Source: a virus. From it: 64,000 nt of DNA. A program made the translations under genes and the position numbers. Below are positions 20,476-36,514 of the stretch, in pieces; positions within the stretch are counted from its first letter, which is position 1; each line of letters starts with the position of its first letter. The DNA is taken from positions 1 to 64,000 of IMG/VR virus record IMGVR_UViG_3300020045_011333; one strand, written 5' to 3'. The notes under the pieces were generated by a model. The model saw only the letters and a list, made by a program, of their open reading frames with translations, made no database searches and had not been told where the DNA came from.

Positions 20476-21459
20476 TTATTTTTTCTTTTTATTTCTAAAA
20501 TTATCAGTTAAGGAGTGACAATTAGCACACAAAAGTTGTAAATTTTCAACTTGGTTATTAAGTCTGTTACCATCAATATGATGTAATTCTATTGGAATCG
20601 GAAATCCATACCATTCAGAAAGATTACATGGGCCTTCGCACTTATGTCCTCTATCTGTAGTGAGATGTTTTCTTACATGATGATTATTACTATATTTGGA
20701 CCAATCTTTTAATTGTGCTCCTTTTGTCCAAGCAGAGCCAGTCCAATGAGAAGTATCCACTTTTAGTCTGTGAAGATTTCTTTTCATGTTATCAAAATTA
20801 CCACCAGCTTCTCTAAGACCTAAACTTCTTAATAAGCCTGAAATAGAAAATACGTGTTTGGAATTTTCAATAATATCTTCATCTGTGTAATTTTTATAAT
20901 TAAAAATTTTTGCTCTATTAGATTTATCTACTTTTTTACAATCTAAAGATTTACAAATATTGTTTTGATCCAATAAGCCTTTTCTAATTTTAATATCGGC
21001 GTTACAAATGTAGCAATTTGAATTAGTAATTAATAATCTATCTGACTTAGGTTTAATTGGACGTTTTGTTTCAGGTTTTTTATATCCTTCCCATCTTTTG
21101 GCAGCTAAATATTTAGCGCTATCCTGTTTAATGGCTGCTTGCCTTAATTTTTCTTTTGTCCCTTCTGATTTTGGTCTACCATTAGCACAAGTTCTAGAAC
21201 AGAATACACCTTGTTTAAAATGTTTTTCATTGCATTTCGGACAAAATTTTTCTATAATTTCTTTAACAAAAGAAAAATCTATATTTAAATCCTCTAATAT
21301 TCCATTAATTTTAGGTCTTACTCTTCCAACATATTTAGTACCAAGAATTTCTGCAAACTCCCTTTTCGATTTACAATTTTTGGCAATATTAATTAATTCT
21401 TCTACTGTATAATTTTTCTTATGAAATTTATAAATTTTTATTTCTTGGCATTCAAACAT
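20476..21459 (-). CDS. free-standing HNH endonuclease with Zn-finger and NUMOD3-like segments
   Basis: C-terminal IELHHIDGNRLNNQVENLQLLCANCH; CPKC...FCSRTC; RPKSEGTKEKLRQAA. Confidence 0.9.
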   Translation of the reverse strand: MFECQEIKIYKFHKKNYTVEELINIAKNCKSKREFAEILGTKYVGRVRPKINGILEDLNIDFSFVKEIIEKFCPKCNEKHFKQGVFCSRTCANGRPKSEGTKEKLRQAAIKQDSAKYLAAKRWEGYKKPETKRPIKPKSDRLLITNSNCYICNADIKIRKGLLDQNNICKSLDCKKVDKSNRAKIFNYKNYTDEDIIENSKHVFSISGLLRSLGLREAGGNFDNMKRNLHRLKVDTSHWTGSAWTKGAQLKDWSKYSNNHHVRKHLTTDRGHKCEGPCNLSEWYGFPIPIELHHIDGNRLNNQVENLQLLCANCHSLTDNFRNKKKK

Positions 21460-23942: not shown

Positions 23943-24025
23943 GGCGCTGTAACCGTTCTTCTCTTCTAAAGAAGTAGACGTAATTGGAGTTGAAAATGCG
24001 GGTTCGATCCCTGCCAGCGTCTCCA
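23943..24025 (+). tRNA. non-canonical D-armless tRNA-like RNA with UCU (Arg) anticodon loop
   Basis: Acceptor GGCGCTG/CAGCGTC+T+CCA; only 8 nt before CTTCT-CTTCTAA-AGAAG; 23-nt variable region; T-arm GCGGG-TTCGATC-CCTGC. Confidence 0.7.
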
Positions 24026-25216
24026 TCACTCTAAAAATTGATTATAAATCATTTCTAAAATTGCAGGCTTATTTACTTCATAATAATTAACTCTAAGAAC
24101 TTTCCATCCTCGCTCAACCATTGCATAATCTCTTAAAATATCATGCTTCCTCTGTGCTGGTTTTTCGTGATGTTTTCCATCTACTTCTATTATAAGTTTC
24201 TTGTTTTTGATAACAAAATCTAAACGATAATATCCATATAAATTATAAGGGCTTTTAGCATACACTTCATTTCTAAATCTAACATTTTTACTTACAAGAA
24301 AATCTTCAAATTTTTGTTCTAACTTAGATTTCCTTCGAAATAAAAAATTTTCCCCCGTTGCTATTCTTTTTCTAACTAATCTAGTGCCTTGTAACTTGGA
24401 ATTAATTTTTAAACATTCATCGGAACAAGTAACCCGTTTACCTGAAGGTTTTGAACATATTTTACAATTCAGTTTTTTAGGTTTATTATAAATTCTATTA
24501 TAATTAATGATATTAGGCTCTATGCCATCATTTTTATCTTTTAAATGTCTATTAATTGCAGCACATGTTTTTGAACAACAGAGACCATTTTTAACATGTT
24601 CATTATAACAAATGATACAATATTTTGTTTCTGGAGTTTTAAATTTTACTATTTTAGGTTTAAACTTTATTCCTTCTTTATTTAAAAATACCCCTAGTAT
24701 TCTTCTGTTAGTTTGATTAGTTTTTAAGTTTAAAGATCGTAAAAGTTCAGCCATATTTCGGCAAATTTTAGCATTCTCTAAAATGGTTGTTTTGTCTAAA
24801 TTCAATCTAATAAAGTTTATCTCATCATCTGTTGTTTTAAATTTATTTTTAAATTCGGGTTCAGGCATATTTTTAATTGTAGAAATTATAGATTTTCGTT
24901 GTTTCTCTCTTGACTCTTTACTTCTAATGGAATTATTATAAATTGCAGCACATGAAGAGGAGCAAAATTTTTCTTGATACTTAATTAAAACTTCTTCACA
25001 TGTGAAGCATTTTCTGATAGGCTTTTGTTTACTTAATTTTTTATTTAATAAGAATTTAGTAAGATCAATATCATATTTTCTTATTTTTCTATTAAGAGTT
25101 CTTAAATGGCTACTAGTAACGGGTATATTTAAAACTTTTAAAACAGAGTTAAATTCATAGCAATTATTCATTGTTTCTTGTAAAAGCTCTTTAGTATAAT
25201 TATGTATTTTACTCAT
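24026..25216 (-). CDS. free-standing endonuclease, DUF559/Vsr-like PD-(D/E)xK domain with N-terminal Zn-finger repeats
   Basis: YRLDFVIKNKKLIIEVDGKHH...DILRDYAMVERGWKVLRV; three CxxC...CSxxC motifs. Confidence 0.82.
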   Translation of the reverse strand: MSKIHNYTKELLQETMNNCYEFNSVLKVLNIPVTSSHLRTLNRKIRKYDIDLTKFLLNKKLSKQKPIRKCFTCEEVLIKYQEKFCSSSCAAIYNNSIRSKESREKQRKSIISTIKNMPEPEFKNKFKTTDDEINFIRLNLDKTTILENAKICRNMAELLRSLNLKTNQTNRRILGVFLNKEGIKFKPKIVKFKTPETKYCIICYNEHVKNGLCCSKTCAAINRHLKDKNDGIEPNIINYNRIYNKPKKLNCKICSKPSGKRVTCSDECLKINSKLQGTRLVRKRIATGENFLFRRKSKLEQKFEDFLVSKNVRFRNEVYAKSPYNLYGYYRLDFVIKNKKLIIEVDGKHHEKPAQRKHDILRDYAMVERGWKVLRVNYYEVNKPAILEMIYNQFLE

Positions 25217-25357: not shown

Positions 25358-25434
25358 GGAAGGTTAGCCAAGTCTGGTAAGGCTCTTTGCTCATAACAAA
25401 GCGATCACAGGTTCAAATCCTGTACCTTCTACCA
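25358..25434 (+). tRNA. tRNA with CAU anticodon (elongator Met or Ile2)
   Basis: GGAAGGT/ACCTTCT+A+CCA; CTTTG-CTCATAA-CAAAG; T-arm ACAGG-TTCAAAT-CCTGT; promoter TTGACA at 25318. Confidence 0.92.
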
Positions 25435-26332: not shown

Positions 26333-28456
26333 ATGACTGATTTTCGTAAATTTTCTGCACTGATTCGTAGTCATTTTGATGAAATGTCCAAGGGCGAACT
26401 ATATGTGGTTGATATTTCTGGTGATGAGCTATGGGATGCTTATCTAGCCGCTTTCCCTGCCGGTACTAATGAAATTTATCGTACCCGCCGTGAATTTGAT
26501 TGCAGCGCGGATCGTAATTTTGTCAAGAATGTGGGTAATGTTGTTCAGATTGATAAGGGCAGTCTAATTTCTGTGTGGGACGCTGCATATGGTCGTACAC
26601 ATGGAGATAAGGAAATTGAATATCCTTTCAATATTGTTTCTGAAAAATTGGCAGAACTGGTTCGTTCAAAACTAATTAAAACTGTGTTTCGGACCAAAGA
26701 ATCTACTTATGGTGTTGAAGTAGCTCGTGAATTGCTTGCTGATGGCAAGGTTCATAATTGGTATAATTTCTATGTCAAGATCGCGGCAAAGCATAAGACG
26801 GATAAGCCAGAAGAAATTCGTGGAAAGCTTAATACAGAAGCTCAAGTCTTCCGGCGAGGTCTAGAAGAACTTACTCCTTATGCAGTCAAAACTGTTAAGG
26901 ATTTGGTGCATGATGAAATGTTCTACCGTAGCGAAGAACATAAGACTAAGGTTTATGAATTTGCTACTCTTCATGCAAAATATTCTAAGCTTAATTCTGA
27001 CGAAGCTCGTAACATTTTCATTTGGGAAAACATAAAGGAAAATATAAATTCTTATCTCACTGGTTTCAAGAATGAAGTTATTGGTTCACTTGTTGTTGAT
27101 CTAAGCAATGGTATTGATATAGAGACAGCAGTTAAGAAGTTTGAATCAAAGGTAGCTCCGGCGAACTATAAACGTTCAAAATCTCTCATCACTCCTGCCA
27201 TGATCCGAGATGCGATGAAGACTATTAATGAATTGGGCCTAGGATCAGCGCTAGAACGTCGCCACGCTCGTATCAGTGATGTAGGCATCAACGATGTTCT
27301 TTTCGTTGACAACAGCGTCAGAGGGGCTATGAAGGGTGGGATTGAAGGTCTACTAATGTCTAGTGCTGTAACGAAGACACCTGATCTTAAGAATCCCGTA
27401 GAAATTAATATTAAGGATTTCCTAGAAACAGTTGTTCCTAATGCAAAATCTATCGAAGTTGCGGTTAAGAATTCTCATTCCAGTAATTTCGTTAGTCTAA
27501 CAGCGCCAATTCATGATGAAGTTGAACGCTTGTTCAAGTGGGACAATAACTTTGCTTGGAGTTATGACGGCAATGTTACAGATTCTGATCTTCGTCAGAA
27601 AGTAAGTGCGGCTGGTGGTCGAGTAGACGGTGTGCTTCGTTTCAGTCATACTTGGAACTATGATGGGAATAATCAAAGCCTGATGGACCTTCATGTATTT
27701 ATGCCGGGGTGTGAACATACTTACCCAACTAGAATCACCAATGGTGAAGAAATTCATGATAATTATGGTGGTGGAAGACGCCGAGTAGGTTGGAATAATC
27801 GTCAAGATGTTACATCTGGTGGTATTCAAGACGTTGACTTCGTTAAGCCTCCGGGTAAAGCAGTTCCGGTTGAAAATATTACTTTTCCAGACATTAATCG
27901 TATGCCAGAAGGAAAGTATGTATTTAAAATTCATAATTGGCAATTCCGAAACGTTACTACTTCTGGTTTTAAGGCTGAAATTGAATTTGGTGGTCAGATT
28001 TTCACTTATGAATATCCAAAGGCTTTGAAGAATAAGCAATGGATTACACTTGCTGAAGTTATGCTTAAAAATGGTGTATTTACCATTGAACATAAGCTTG
28101 ATAGTAAAGCTGTTTCTCAAGAAAAGTGGGGCGTGAAAACTGAAACACTTGTTCCGGTTGATAGTATTGTGTTAAGTCCGAATCATTGGGAAGGCAAAGA
28201 AATCGGGAATAAACACTGGTTCTTTATTCTAAAAGATTGCTTGAATCCTGAGCCGGTACGCGGCATCTATAATGAATTTTTGTCACAAAAGCTTGATAAG
28301 CATCGCAAGGTGTTTGAAATTCTAGGTGATAAGACTAAGGCAGAACCTGTTAACGATCAACTTAGCGGAATTGGGTTTAGTTCAACTAAAAGAGATAGTT
28401 TGACAGCGGTTGTTCGTGGTGATAAGACTTCTAAGGTATACCAAATTAATTTTTAA
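26333..28456 (+). CDS. large conserved phage protein of unknown function (707 aa) with a TerD/YfaP-like internal segment
   Basis: Long ORF with strong RBS; GVLRFSHTWN...DLHVF...DVDF...VENI segment. Confidence 0.6.
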   Translation: MTDFRKFSALIRSHFDEMSKGELYVVDISGDELWDAYLAAFPAGTNEIYRTRREFDCSADRNFVKNVGNVVQIDKGSLISVWDAAYGRTHGDKEIEYPFNIVSEKLAELVRSKLIKTVFRTKESTYGVEVARELLADGKVHNWYNFYVKIAAKHKTDKPEEIRGKLNTEAQVFRRGLEELTPYAVKTVKDLVHDEMFYRSEEHKTKVYEFATLHAKYSKLNSDEARNIFIWENIKENINSYLTGFKNEVIGSLVVDLSNGIDIETAVKKFESKVAPANYKRSKSLITPAMIRDAMKTINELGLGSALERRHARISDVGINDVLFVDNSVRGAMKGGIEGLLMSSAVTKTPDLKNPVEINIKDFLETVVPNAKSIEVAVKNSHSSNFVSLTAPIHDEVERLFKWDNNFAWSYDGNVTDSDLRQKVSAAGGRVDGVLRFSHTWNYDGNNQSLMDLHVFMPGCEHTYPTRITNGEEIHDNYGGGRRRVGWNNRQDVTSGGIQDVDFVKPPGKAVPVENITFPDINRMPEGKYVFKIHNWQFRNVTTSGFKAEIEFGGQIFTYEYPKALKNKQWITLAEVMLKNGVFTIEHKLDSKAVSQEKWGVKTETLVPVDSIVLSPNHWEGKEIGNKHWFFILKDCLNPEPVRGIYNEFLSQKLDKHRKVFEILGDKTKAEPVNDQLSGIGFSSTKRDSLTAVVRGDKTSKVYQINF

Positions 28457-33021: not shown

Positions 33022-34125
33022 TTAAACATTTTTGTTTTCTCCTGAAATATTTCTAACCGTTTTTCCAATCGTCTGTTCGGATAATTTAAATTTTGAAGCT
33101 AAAACTGTGTAAGTAACATCACCTTTAGCATATGCCTTTCTAATTTCATCATAAGTTTCATCATTTTCTACTTTCGCAAAAACATTATTTGATCCTGCAT
33201 TTCTTTTTACAGTATTTAACATATTTTGCTCACACTGTCGAAATTTATCTTGTTTTTTAGCATGATCCATGTTATATGTATGATCACAAGGTTCCAAATT
33301 AGATAATTCGTTATTTTTAGCGTTACCATCTATATGATTAATTAGCGGTGTCTCTGGCGATGGATATCCTTTAAAATACACATAAACTAATCTATGAGTG
33401 GACATGTGGTGAACTTTACCATTTAGAGATTTAGATACTCTAAAATACCTCTCTTTTTTACTTAAAGATGTACCTATAAAATTACCTGTAATGGTATTTA
33501 ATACTCTACCATCTTCAAATACTTTAAATTCTCCAGATTTAGCACAATTTAATATTACAGATTCACTTTCGTAATTAATTTTTGTATGTTTAGGAATAAT
33601 TACTTCTGGCATAGCTACATGTTTATAAGATTTACCTAAAACTGCTTGCATAATAGTTGATTTATTAGAATTAAATTTCTCGCAGAGTTTTTTATAAGAA
33701 TAATCTCCAGAGGCATAAATACAACGCATTTCCCATACCTGCTCATTAGTAAAATTACGGTTAGTATTTTTAGTTCCGCGAGCTACAGCGTGAGCATTAT
33801 TTTCTTGACTTGTAACTACTTCTAGATTATCAATATGATTATTAGTTCTATCACCATCTATGTGGTTAATCCATTGACGGTCTTCTGGTATAGGTCCATT
33901 ATACATTAAATAAACTAATCTATGAATAGGAAAGTTTCTGGGTTTTCCAAATTCTTTAAAATTATAAGTTACGTAATGATAACCATCTGGTTTAGGATTT
34001 TCACTTAAATACCTATTTAAAAGTTTACTAAAAACTTTACCTTCGCGAGTAACTTCATAAAGATTGGTATTACTAAATAATTCTAAAAATAATTTTTCTT
34101 TTTCTCTATTAACTGGCATTGACAT
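33022..34125 (-). CDS. HNH homing-type endonuclease with two tandem HNH+HTH units
   Basis: HRLVY...INHIDGDRTNNHIDNLE and HRLVY...INHIDGNAKNNELSNLE, each followed by an HTH-like segment. Confidence 0.88.
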   Translation of the reverse strand: MSMPVNREKEKLFLELFSNTNLYEVTREGKVFSKLLNRYLSENPKPDGYHYVTYNFKEFGKPRNFPIHRLVYLMYNGPIPEDRQWINHIDGDRTNNHIDNLEVVTSQENNAHAVARGTKNTNRNFTNEQVWEMRCIYASGDYSYKKLCEKFNSNKSTIMQAVLGKSYKHVAMPEVIIPKHTKINYESESVILNCAKSGEFKVFEDGRVLNTITGNFIGTSLSKKERYFRVSKSLNGKVHHMSTHRLVYVYFKGYPSPETPLINHIDGNAKNNELSNLEPCDHTYNMDHAKKQDKFRQCEQNMLNTVKRNAGSNNVFAKVENDETYDEIRKAYAKGDVTYTVLASKFKLSEQTIGKTVRNISGENKNV

Positions 34126-34350: not shown

Positions 34351-36024
34351 TTACGCCGTAACGGTTCCTGTTTGATTTTTTTGCTCATGTTTCAATCTCT
34401 CTTCCTTTTCTTTATTTTTTCTCATCATTTCTTCTTCAATAGCTTTTTCTACAGCATTTCTACGCCATTCACTAGAAGGCGCGGACCCCGCGCCGTGGAG
34501 TTTTTGAGTGCCGCCTTTTCTAACCCTACCTCTAGCCCATTCTAAATATTGGCTTGTGGAATCCACAGCATCATCAAACTGGCCATTAGGAAAAGAAAGT
34601 ATTTCTTTTTCATAGTCTGCTACCCAATTAGCACGTTCTGGAATATGAATCAAGCCTGCTTCAAACATTGGTGCCACAGCGTCCATTCTAAATTCTTTAG
34701 AATTATTATTAGTAGAAATAGCTATAACAGGCGTAGTTGATCTACTTTGCTTTAATTGTATGTAACTTGTACCTGAACCTTTGTCTTCAACTAAAATTGC
34801 TGAAGCTCCCCAACGTTCGGCAGTTAAATCAACTTCTTTAATTAATTCTGGCAACTCTAATTTTTTTCTGACCATATCTAATAGGTAGTGATGCCCTGTA
34901 GCCGTTTCGGCCCAAGTAGTTAAAACACTAAAATCGTTGCGCTCTCCTTTTTTCTGCGCTGAGTCAACAGATAAAGTAATTCTTCTAATTTGAATAGTTT
35001 CATCTTTTCTTGGATCATTACTATATTTTTGAAACCATATTCCTCTAATTAAACCGCCTTCACCATCTAACGGCTCACCTTGATAGATAGCGCTGAATTG
35101 GTGAGTAGTCATAGAATTTCTAAGATTAATATAATGCTCTGCCGGGTAATAATCCCATACAGTTTCGTCAACTCCTTTTCTTCCAATAGGGTCGTTTTCA
35201 GGAATTCCGTCAGATAAAGCTTTTAGATTAAAATATTCATAAGGAATCATTTTTCCTTTTTTAGATTCTTCTAATAAGAATCCGATGAGATCATTTTCCG
35301 AAAATCTCGTATTTACGATCACAATAGGTGCTCTAGGAAGTAAGCGTGAGCTAAAATCTGCAAGGAACCAAGTTTTCGCGGTTTCTCTAACTTTTGGGTC
35401 TTGTGCATCATCCCAAGATGAATACAAATCGTCAATAGCACCTATTGATGCGCGAATTCCAGATATTCCGCTCCCGACGCCACGTGCCAAATACTCAGAT
35501 TTGTTAGTCATGGCCCACCGTGCACCGGCTCTAGCGTCAGCTAATAGAGCGCAATCTGGAAATATATCTTTGTATTCATCAGATGTAACATAAGCTTTAG
35601 TTTTTTTACCTAACTCACCTTCAGCAAATGTGGCATTATAACTAGCTTGAAGCCATTTTACCTTACGCCTTCCCATGGCCCAAACAGCGAATCTTCTTGA
35701 AGAGTATTCGGTTTTACCGGCTCCGGCACAAACGCTTAACGCGAGTCTTGGTATAATTCCTTCTTCTACAAGTTGCAATCTCTCACATATAATATGATGA
35801 TGGTAAGCAGGAGGTTCTTCCATATTTAAATATTCGGCAAAACAAGAATAATTATTAAAAGAGTTTTCTCTTAATTTATTTTTATATTCTGCTTCATAAT
35901 GCTCAATAAAACTTTGAATTCCAGCTAATTGTCCGTATGGATCGCTAGTCTTCGTCAACTCCGTTATAGCTGATATGTACTGGTTCGGAACTGGTTTCGG
36001 GAAGATTGATCGGAACGAGTCCAT
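34351..36024 (-). CDS. terL: terminase large subunit
   Basis: ATPase motifs GAGKT and IDD; nuclease motifs SVDSAQ...DFS and DDAVDSTSQ. Start placed at ATG 36024 (GGAGG 8 nt upstream). Confidence 0.92.
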   Translation of the reverse strand: MDSFRSIFPKPVPNQYISAITELTKTSDPYGQLAGIQSFIEHYEAEYKNKLRENSFNNYSCFAEYLNMEEPPAYHHHIICERLQLVEEGIIPRLALSVCAGAGKTEYSSRRFAVWAMGRRKVKWLQASYNATFAEGELGKKTKAYVTSDEYKDIFPDCALLADARAGARWAMTNKSEYLARGVGSGISGIRASIGAIDDLYSSWDDAQDPKVRETAKTWFLADFSSRLLPRAPIVIVNTRFSENDLIGFLLEESKKGKMIPYEYFNLKALSDGIPENDPIGRKGVDETVWDYYPAEHYINLRNSMTTHQFSAIYQGEPLDGEGGLIRGIWFQKYSNDPRKDETIQIRRITLSVDSAQKKGERNDFSVLTTWAETATGHHYLLDMVRKKLELPELIKEVDLTAERWGASAILVEDKGSGTSYIQLKQSRSTTPVIAISTNNNSKEFRMDAVAPMFEAGLIHIPERANWVADYEKEILSFPNGQFDDAVDSTSQYLEWARGRVRKGGTQKLHGAGSAPSSEWRRNAVEKAIEEEMMRKNKEKEERLKHEQKNQTGTVTA

Positions 36025-36514
36025 CAATACTTCCTCCATTATTTTCAGATTTTTGATTGATGATCGAAATGAAAGTCTGGCTTCCCAAGTTAGATTTGTC
36101 ATTAGTAGGTAGCATCCTATTAGTAGTTTTTTCTTCCGGTTCGGGACGGACTTTGTTTATATCTGCCATATCTTTCAAAAGAATGGCTGCGTTTTTTAAA
36201 TCTTTTTCTTCTCTTGCAATGTTTAGAAAAGCAATGTATTCATTATTAATCCATTCCAAAGAAACAGCCGCGTCTTCAACTTTTTTCAAAGGTAAAGGCG
36301 GCGCAGTATCCATAGCACCTTTTTCAGCAGCTTTGATCTTCAACTCTTCAACTCGTGCCGCAACTGTAGGCTCACTCATTAGTTTAGAAGCATTAGCAGC
36401 GGCTGTACTATTCTTACAAGCATAGCCCGCCTCTTTATAAGCAGACATTTGAGTATAACCGGCTGCTATATATGTAGCAAATTTTTCTTGTTTTTCTATA
36501 CTAAGTCTAGCCAT
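35945..36514 (-). CDS. terS: terminase small subunit
   Basis: KQEKFATYIAAGYTQMSAYKEAGY...AAANASKLMSEPTVAARVEEL HTH typical of TerS; directly upstream of terL. Confidence 0.85.
   Translation of the reverse strand: MARLSIEKQEKFATYIAAGYTQMSAYKEAGYACKNSTAAANASKLMSEPTVAARVEELKIKAAEKGAMDTAPPLPLKKVEDAAVSLEWINNEYIAFLNIAREEKDLKNAAILLKDMADINKVRPEPEEKTTNRMLPTNDKSNLGSQTFISIINQKSENNGGSIDGLVPINLPETSSEPVHISYNGVDED

Follow-up and report, generated by a model that had tools for sequence, protein, structure and literature searches.

The window analyzed here covers the opening 64 kb of a phage genome that is complete at 184,940 bp and has direct terminal repeats. It contains an 83-base tRNA gene (23943–24025, plus strand) whose D-arm appears to be threaded around the anticodon arm instead of preceding it. 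The mature RNA is predicted to be a three-way junction in place of the four-way junction of the cloverleaf. Our main reading, to which we assign a probability of roughly 0.78, is that the gene encodes a functional elongator tRNA-Arg(UCU) that reads AGA for the 185-kb phage, and the same predicted tRNA would probably read AGG as well. Hundreds of phage genomes share this non-cloverleaf layout, in most cases with no annotation of the gene. The initial annotation had left the choice between a topologically rewired functional tRNA for AGA codons and a mischarged or decoy tRNA. Comparison of related sequences favors the former reading, and the decoy or mischarged alternative seems less likely for this gene.

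From 5′ to 3′, the gene is made up of the segments GGCGCTG, TA, ACCGTT, CTTCT, CTTCTAA, AGAAG, TAGACG, TAATTGGA, GTT, GAAAAT, GCGGG, TTCGATC, CCTGC, CAGCGTC, T and CCA. A large part of this is canonical. The 5′ strand of the acceptor stem (GGCGCTG, 23943–23949) forms seven pairs, one of them G-T, with CAGCGTC (24015–24021), after which the discriminator T73 (24022) and an encoded CCA (24023–24025) complete the gene. All seven pairs covary in an alignment of 28 relatives, where 99% of the cells are paired. An encoded CCA occurs in about half of the rewired family. The T-arm (23998–24014) consists of the stem strands GCGGG and CCTGC, five pairs in total, and the canonical loop TTCGATC, which conforms to TTCRANY. 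The two G-C pairs that flank this loop are invariant and 97% of the cells are paired in relatives. The anticodon arm (23958–23974) has a 5-bp stem of CTTCT (23958–23962) and AGAAG (23970–23974), of which all five pairs covary, and a 7-nt loop, CTTCTAA, with T33, the anticodon TCT (23965–23967) and the purine A37. Only 8 nt (TAACCGTT) separate the acceptor stem from the anticodon stem, and the canonical D hairpin (a 3–4-bp stem with a 7–11-nt loop containing GG, located between nt 9 and 26) is absent. The acceptor, the anticodon stem-loop with UCU, U33 and A37, the T-arm and the 8-nt replacement of the D-arm had all been listed by the initial annotation and are found exactly where it placed them.

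The remaining segments carry the features of the rewired class, namely a helix at nt 9–11, a second helix of 3 bp and a TA(A/G)N0-2GG bulge with an A after the GG. U8 (23950) is a lone connector nucleotide, invariant as T in alignments A1 and A3. It is followed by AAC (23951–23953), a remnant of the D-stem and the 5′ strand of the top helix, whose partner is GTT (23989–23991). Next comes CGT (23954–23956), which is continuous with the anticodon stem and pairs as the second short helix with ACG (23978–23980). On the 3′ side of the anticodon stem, TAG (23975–23977) forms a small internal loop that faces T23957 in alignment A1. Between the 3′ strands of the two short helices lies a D-loop-like bulge of 8 nt (TAATTGGA, 23981–23988), in which GG occupies 23986–23987 and A23988 is the equivalent of position 20. 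The GG motif is shared family-wide. Finally, the linker GAAAAT (23992–23997) leads to the T-arm and corresponds to the variable region. Its G and its final T are invariant in class B (defined below), and some relatives (L025, L078, L106 and L115) have an extra small hairpin in the equivalent position.

Both short helices are backed by covariation. For class B we used a MAFFT alignment of 28 genes, while class A comprises 23 genes. In class B, the proposed structure pairs 92.7% of the cells, compared to 64.2% in column shuffles (none of 500 shuffles attains the observed value) and 38–50% if the partners are slid. The corresponding values for class A are 95.1% and, in shuffles, 68.6%. The top helix joins nt 9–11 to the three bases after GGA. 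Its middle pair (columns 10:50) is AU in 14, GC in 13 and UA in one of the 28 class-B genes and is never broken, which substantiates the AAC(23951)/GTT(23989) closure suggested by the initial annotation. In class A this helix is invariant, so its covariation support comes from class B. The second helix joins nt 12–14 to the three bases before the D-loop motif UAAUUGGA. In class B, pair 13:39 is GC in 22, AU in five and UA in one gene, and pair 14:38 is formed in 20 of the 28 genes by five pair types. In class A, the counterparts of these pairs are UA16/AU4/GC3 and CG18/GC3/UA2. An extension of the anticodon stem through CGTT/GACG had also been suggested. Its CGT/ACG part covaries, but the fourth pair (T23957–G23977), possible in this copy, is unpaired in 22 of the 28 relatives. 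Many relatives form a sixth anticodon-stem pair between columns 15 and 33. RNAalifold independently predicts the second helix in class B. It does not recover the 3-bp top helix, nor the second helix in class A. For the window copy on its own, the proposed fold has a free energy of −17.6 kcal/mol compared to −21.5 kcal/mol for the minimum free energy structure, with a single-sequence z of −1.2. Thermodynamics alone therefore neither finds nor excludes the proposed fold. Given the covariation of the two short helices, the anticodon arm is most plausibly nested in a split D-stem, with the D-loop motif as an 8-nt bulge. The term D-armless, used in the initial annotation, is thus apt insofar as no D hairpin stands 5′ of the anticodon arm, but it overlooks that D-stem and D-loop appear to be kept.

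This arrangement would allow the RNA to retain much of the tRNA core. After U8, a single composite arm would be built from the 3-bp top helix (AAC/GTT), the 3-bp CGT/ACG helix and the 5-bp anticodon stem, with the small internal loop ahead of the latter. It would take the place that the stack of D-stem and anticodon stem has in a normal tRNA. The motif UAAUUGGA would bulge from the 3′ strand of this arm, between both short helices, and would exit some 9–10 layers above the anticodon loop, which is roughly the normal exit height of the D-loop. At this height the GG of the bulge could still lock onto the T-loop and thereby form the elbow of an L-shape. Since all parsed members have a GG-containing motif, such elbow contacts with the T-loop remain possible throughout the family. 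The A of the bulge could in turn be read as A20 by the host ArgRS, and in place of the tertiary layers 8:14 and 15:48 there would be the top helix.

Existing tools largely overlook these genes. The Rfam tRNA model (RF00005) gives the window gene 33.3 bits (gathering score, 29), reached only by collapsing the D-arm to a 2-bp "stem" with a 1-nt loop and by opening a 20-nt insertion in the variable region. The ordinary tRNAs of the same genome score 38–72 bits with this model. ARAGORN makes no call at 23943–24025. Among 65 family members it calls eight, mostly with a wrong identity. Phage records label rewired genes as "tRNA-OTHER", "tRNA-Leu" or "tRNA-Val". We built a covariance model (R1) from the 28 class-B members, with which the window gene scores 90.9 bits, a circular value since the sequence itself is part of the seed alignment. 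Members outside the seed score 41–89 bits, while ordinary tRNAs mostly remain below 35 and reach 37.5 at most. The rewired genes hence expose a systematic blind spot of tRNA finders. Two ordinary genes of the same genome, both outside the window, are also seen by one tool only. A tRNA-Tyr(GTA) with a long variable arm (74826–74908) scores 38.1 bits with Rfam and is missed by ARAGORN, and a tRNA-Asn called by ARAGORN (74734–74810) is absent from the Rfam list.

The initial annotation had proposed looking for the same topology in other phages, which yielded at least 93 distinct genes as well as six confirmed cultured carriers. A pattern scan of IMG/VR for the shared motif GTAATTGGAG, followed 4–24 nt later by GGTTCGA, returned at least 118 loci. 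A 7-bp acceptor stem closes at the expected distance in 85 of the 120 viral-contig matches listed, corresponding to at least 66 distinct genes. As a control, a nearly identical pattern, with the minimum gap lowered from 4 to 3 nt, was run on 596 Gb of bacterial and archaeal genomes. The layout was found in two of the 120 matches listed, both on short MAG contigs. R1 recovers all members from the pattern scan and adds others with variant D-loop motifs (TAACTGGA, TAATGGA, TAACGGA, TAGCGGT, etc.), bringing the family in viral contigs to the total of at least 93. Given the shared layout and the compensatory changes in so many distinct genes, the element in the window is more than a product of chance. 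A second occurrence of its exact acceptor and T-arm pattern was not found in viral contigs.

A BLAST search with a class-A member against cultured phages gave around 270 (n = 271) records, in nearly all of which the gene is without annotation. We confirmed six carriers directly: Felix O1, the Klebsiella T5-like phage Roth37, Pseudomonas phage PA11, Caulobacter phage CcrColossus, Microbacterium phage Pumpernickel and Streptomyces phage Yaboi. Their hosts belong to Proteobacteria and Actinobacteria. The gene is annotated as "tRNA-OTHER" in Roth37 and as "tRNA-Val(aac)" in Yaboi. Thermus phage TMA was not retained as a carrier, as its BLAST match lacks confirmation by the covariance model. When the 601-nt neighborhood of the window gene was used as the query, no match to cultured phages was obtained; only short, tRNA-sized queries gave matches. 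Rewired genes are located within tRNA clusters, and single phages may carry runs of them (seven in L097 and five in L127).

Several other tRNA-like elements were encountered along the way. The T5 record (NC_005859, 26000–50000, L261) annotates several "tRNA-like stable RNAs with unknown functions" (RNA1, RNA2 and RNA3) in its tRNA region. We considered them as candidate members and rejected them, as none fits the model (best score, 32.9 bits). Roth37 encodes a second "tRNA-OTHER" (L139:107–191) with a normal D-arm (AGTT AATTGGTA GACT) and a T-arm, and with around 40 nt of unrelated hairpin in the position of the anticodon arm. Two shorter elements, L048:14178–14224 (47 nt) and L018:8403–8454 (52 nt), lack an anticodon arm and consist of acceptor stem, T-arm and a segment resembling a D-loop or D-arm; R1 gives them 33–38 bits. 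At eight loci (L032, L040, L048, L067, L104, L109, L113 and L118), GTAATTGGAG is followed by a small hairpin (ACAG…CTGT) and a T-arm-like GGGGTTCGATTCCC. No matching 5′ acceptor strand is present at the expected distance, and we regard these as a different tRNA-like element. Finally, L012:4729–4849 is a tRNA related to the tRNA-Lys(ttt) at L015:4594–4668 with an insertion of around 48 nt in the anticodon loop, which may be an intron or the sign of a disrupted gene. Rfam assigns it 59.8 bits over 121 nt, while ARAGORN reports a 96-nt "tRNA-Thr(ggt)". After this tRNA-Lys-related gene follows a conserved stretch of around 90 nt (L012:4855–4945 and L015:4672–4760, with …TTAGCG[TC]AACGTGAGAGTT[AG]CACTT…) that may be a structured RNA.

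The anticodons of the 93 genes found fall into three groups: Arg (n = 80; TCT 55, TCG 11, ACG 9 and CCT 5), Ile (n = 10; GAT 5 and TAT 5) and CAT (n = 3). Note that the search started from an Arg-specific motif and used a model trained on Arg members, so the proportions of Arg, Ile and CAU members and the apparent absence of other identities are provisional. The motif TA[AG]N0-2GG is present in 92 of the 92 parsed members. Among the anticodon loops listed, T at position 33 and A at position 37 each have a single exception, which in the case of position 37 is G. Nucleotides elsewhere in the molecule track the anticodon. Behind the GG of the bulge, every one of the 80 Arg genes has an A, and the 13 Ile/CAU genes have T or C without exception. 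The discriminator is A in all 13 Ile/CAU genes and G (n = 33), A (n = 27) or T (n = 20) among the 80 Arg genes. A20 and C35 form the main arginine identity set of E. coli ArgRS, while A73 is common to the Ile and Met identities, recognized by IleRS and MetRS (PMC9976931). Both Arg determinants, the A20 equivalent and C35, are present in the window gene. Its U73 differs from the A73 or G73 that is usual in bacterial tRNA-Arg. In a decoy or pseudogene, nothing would have called for keeping such links between anticodon and identity elements.

The genomic context is consistent with a role in decoding. The phage has 15–16 ordinary tRNAs, none of which is for Arg, and exactly one rewired gene. AGA is its most common Arg codon, accounting for 579 of 1506 Arg codons in ORFs of at least 150 amino acids. 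In the 7-kb tRNA cluster of Felix O1 that was examined, the rewired gene is likewise the sole UCU tRNA and lies beside a canonical Arg(ACG). At around nine of 65 loci, ARAGORN calls a tRNA-Arg(tct) beside the rewired gene, so the rewired copy is not always the sole AGA decoder. To act as such, the rewired RNA would be transcribed, processed by RNase P, charged and used by the ribosome. Promoter and terminator scans gave background level only.

In the window, the rewired gene starts 10 nt after a 63-aa ORF, and its CCA abuts, with zero spacing, the stop codon of a convergent 396-aa ORF (24026–25216, minus strand) with a C-terminal DUF559/Vsr-like endonuclease domain. This ORF separates it from a normal tRNA-Met(CAU) at 25358–25434. 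In L015, a rewired tRNA and tRNA-Met are just around 16 nt apart, so the 396-aa ORF in the window has the look of an inserted homing endonuclease gene. The rewired tRNA also has HNH endonuclease genes as immediate neighbors in Felix O1, Klebsiella phage Roth37 and Pseudomonas phage PA11. The window contains two more HNH endonuclease genes (20476–21459 and 33022–34125, both on the minus strand), the latter adjoining the large terminase gene (34351–36102). The nearest relatives, L012 and L015, were found via a 707-aa phrog_1735 protein (56% identity), while a small upstream ORF of 133 aa has no relatives usable as a synteny anchor. The slot upstream of the phrog_1735 gene holds a canonical tRNA-Arg(tct) in L012 and a rewired one, beside tRNA-Met, in L015 and in the window. 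The L015 element, directly before tRNA-Met, has the same layout with an entirely different acceptor and stems. Rewired and canonical tRNA-Arg(tct) are thus interchangeable in synteny. The phrog_1735 protein itself (26333–28456, plus strand; 748 bits, no Pfam match) occurs with 35–56% identity in more than 500 very diverse phages, including those of Salmonella, Klebsiella, Caulobacter and Bacillus and a cyanophage. Its gene lies just downstream of tRNA genes in the window, L012 and L015, whereas other relatives have their tRNAs elsewhere in the flanks or none.

Could the RNA serve outside translation? A tRNA mimic might act as a sponge for host factors that bind tRNA, such as an anticodon nuclease specific for Arg/Ile, or else it might provide a primer or a processing signal. 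No tRNA known to function on bacterial ribosomes has a fold like this one, defences that cleave tRNA are known to be countered by tRNAs of phages (background in PMC12409363), and a phage that already has a tRNA-Arg(tct) beside the rewired gene, as at around nine of 65 loci according to ARAGORN, fits such a role. Nonetheless, bait for an anticodon nuclease would need neither a 7-bp acceptor, nor an encoded CCA, nor a discriminator that tracks identity (A73 in 13 of 13 Ile/CAT members). The ArgRS determinant A after GG, found in 80 of 80 Arg members and in none of the others, also speaks against it, as does the position of the gene as the only UCU-anticodon tRNA in the genome of the window and in the Felix O1 cluster examined. 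We therefore consider a decoy improbable. A further suggestion, based on the resemblance of the acceptor (GGCGC...U73) to tRNA-Cys, does not withstand comparison with the family, in which acceptors vary freely. U73 is indeed a major determinant of tRNA-Cys (PMC9976931) and T73 is found in 20 of the 80 Arg-anticodon members, so a functional tRNA charged with an amino acid other than arginine, for example cysteine, might recode AGA. However, the GCA anticodon, the other major Cys determinant (PMC9976931), is absent; the discriminator varies between G, A and T among otherwise similar members while the A after GG and C35 are constant; and many proteins would be altered, since AGA is the most common Arg codon in the long ORFs of the phage. 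Recoding is accordingly a very remote prospect.

More remote still is a decayed or rearranged pseudogene, or an assembly artefact, confined to one contig. The low Rfam score of 33.3 bits, the silence of ARAGORN and the homing-endonuclease-like gene that abuts the 3′ end would all fit a damaged gene. Yet relatives share the layout with compensatory changes in at least 93 distinct genes, and six independently sequenced cultured phages carry it, which also disposes of the assembly error or recent deletion that the initial annotation had put forward as a refutation. A one-off element is equally untenable for a member of a large phage family. A remnant of a destroyed canonical tRNA-Arg was looked for near the endonuclease gene and not found, nor is there a remnant of another tRNA nearby. 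We regard the pseudogene or artefact as already refuted by the family-wide covariation, and a functional tRNA-Arg(UCU) for AGA remains the reading that we prefer.

Two candidate explanations can be offered for why such a tRNA is rewired at all. One is a frozen rearrangement that was spread by the homing endonuclease genes that are often adjacent, and the other is an escape from tRNA-targeting defences. An adaptive origin, as opposed to a frozen accident, would make it an immune-evasive fold. Such a fold would keep the determinants for the host ArgRS, IleRS and MetRS (all class Ia) and for the ribosome and would remove the geometry of D-arm and anticodon stem that is recognized by host nucleases targeting tRNA or by the phage's own host-tRNA-degrading activity, while adjacent homing endonuclease genes would spread the fold between unrelated phages. 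We put this forward as speculative and rather doubtful.

If these genes work as tRNAs, a tRNA core with different wiring is acceptable to bacterial ArgRS, IleRS, MetRS (or TilS), RNase P and EF-Tu as well as to the ribosome, and the view of which tRNA architecture is essential would change. Such genes would also account for the apparent lack of an AGA tRNA in many phages, including Felix O1 (in the cluster examined), and would provide genetic-code engineers with a scaffold from nature that may be orthogonal. Existing phages of E. coli and Salmonella put the question within direct experimental reach. A full-text search of literature mostly outside subscription journals found no description of the rewired layout, and an older report may exist. 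A 2020 review of non-canonical tRNAs makes no mention of phages (PMC7609411). A 2023 survey of viral structured RNAs describes a csRNA, "DNAVirus_2961", that sometimes overlaps ARAGORN tRNA-Arg calls (PMC10690425) and may be the rewired family.

The closest point of reference is a canonical class I tRNA-Arg(UCU) such as L012:5128–5204, which shares with the window gene its genomic slot and its presumed job of AGA decoding, in addition to the same acceptor length, U8, a 5-bp anticodon stem, a CUUCUAA-type loop, GG with A20, a T-arm and CCA. We take E. coli argU and the tRNA-Arg of T4 to be further examples of this type. In the rewired gene, by contrast, the strands of the D-stem flank the anticodon arm, the D-loop is a bulge 3′ of that arm, and a 6-nt linker takes the place of the variable loop. 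Rfam reflects this difference with 33 bits compared to 62 for the canonical L012 copy. The lack of a D hairpin before the anticodon stem is reminiscent of mitochondrial tRNAs of the mt-tRNA-Ser(AGY/UCU) type, of which the anticodon also happens to be UCU. Mitochondrial tRNAs without a D-arm are not known to have a GG/T-loop lock and depend on adapted organellar factors. The rewired RNA, on the other hand, is full length (80 nt plus CCA), has a canonical T-loop as well as a GG motif in its conserved 8-nt bulge, and would have to rely on the ordinary enzymes of bacteria. The GG motif, the full length and the canonical T-loop rule out that it belongs to the mitochondrial D-armless class, whose members, according to review literature, are shortened, with a flexible connector for the D-arm and a short T-arm.

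An altered order of parts is also known from the circularly permuted tRNA genes of Cyanidioschyzon merolae, in which the two halves are encoded in reverse, 3′ before 5′, and a normal cloverleaf is regained by processing. Both deviate from the textbook order of parts, but the rewired gene keeps its acceptor strands in the usual order, and its rewiring would persist in the mature RNA. Allo-tRNAs (with 8/4 or 9/3 acceptor/T stems), tRNA-Sec and tRNA-Pyl are natural departures from the 7/5 cloverleaf, some of them phage-borne (PMC5389517, PMC7609411). In these, helix lengths change while the order of the arms stays the same, whereas in the rewired tRNA the order itself is changed. The field regards all bacterial tRNAs as cloverleaves (PMC11551756). 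Laboratory-evolved E. coli with a tRNA of non-canonical fold likewise uses a non-cloverleaf adaptor in bacterial translation (PMC11551756), but there the adaptor was engineered.
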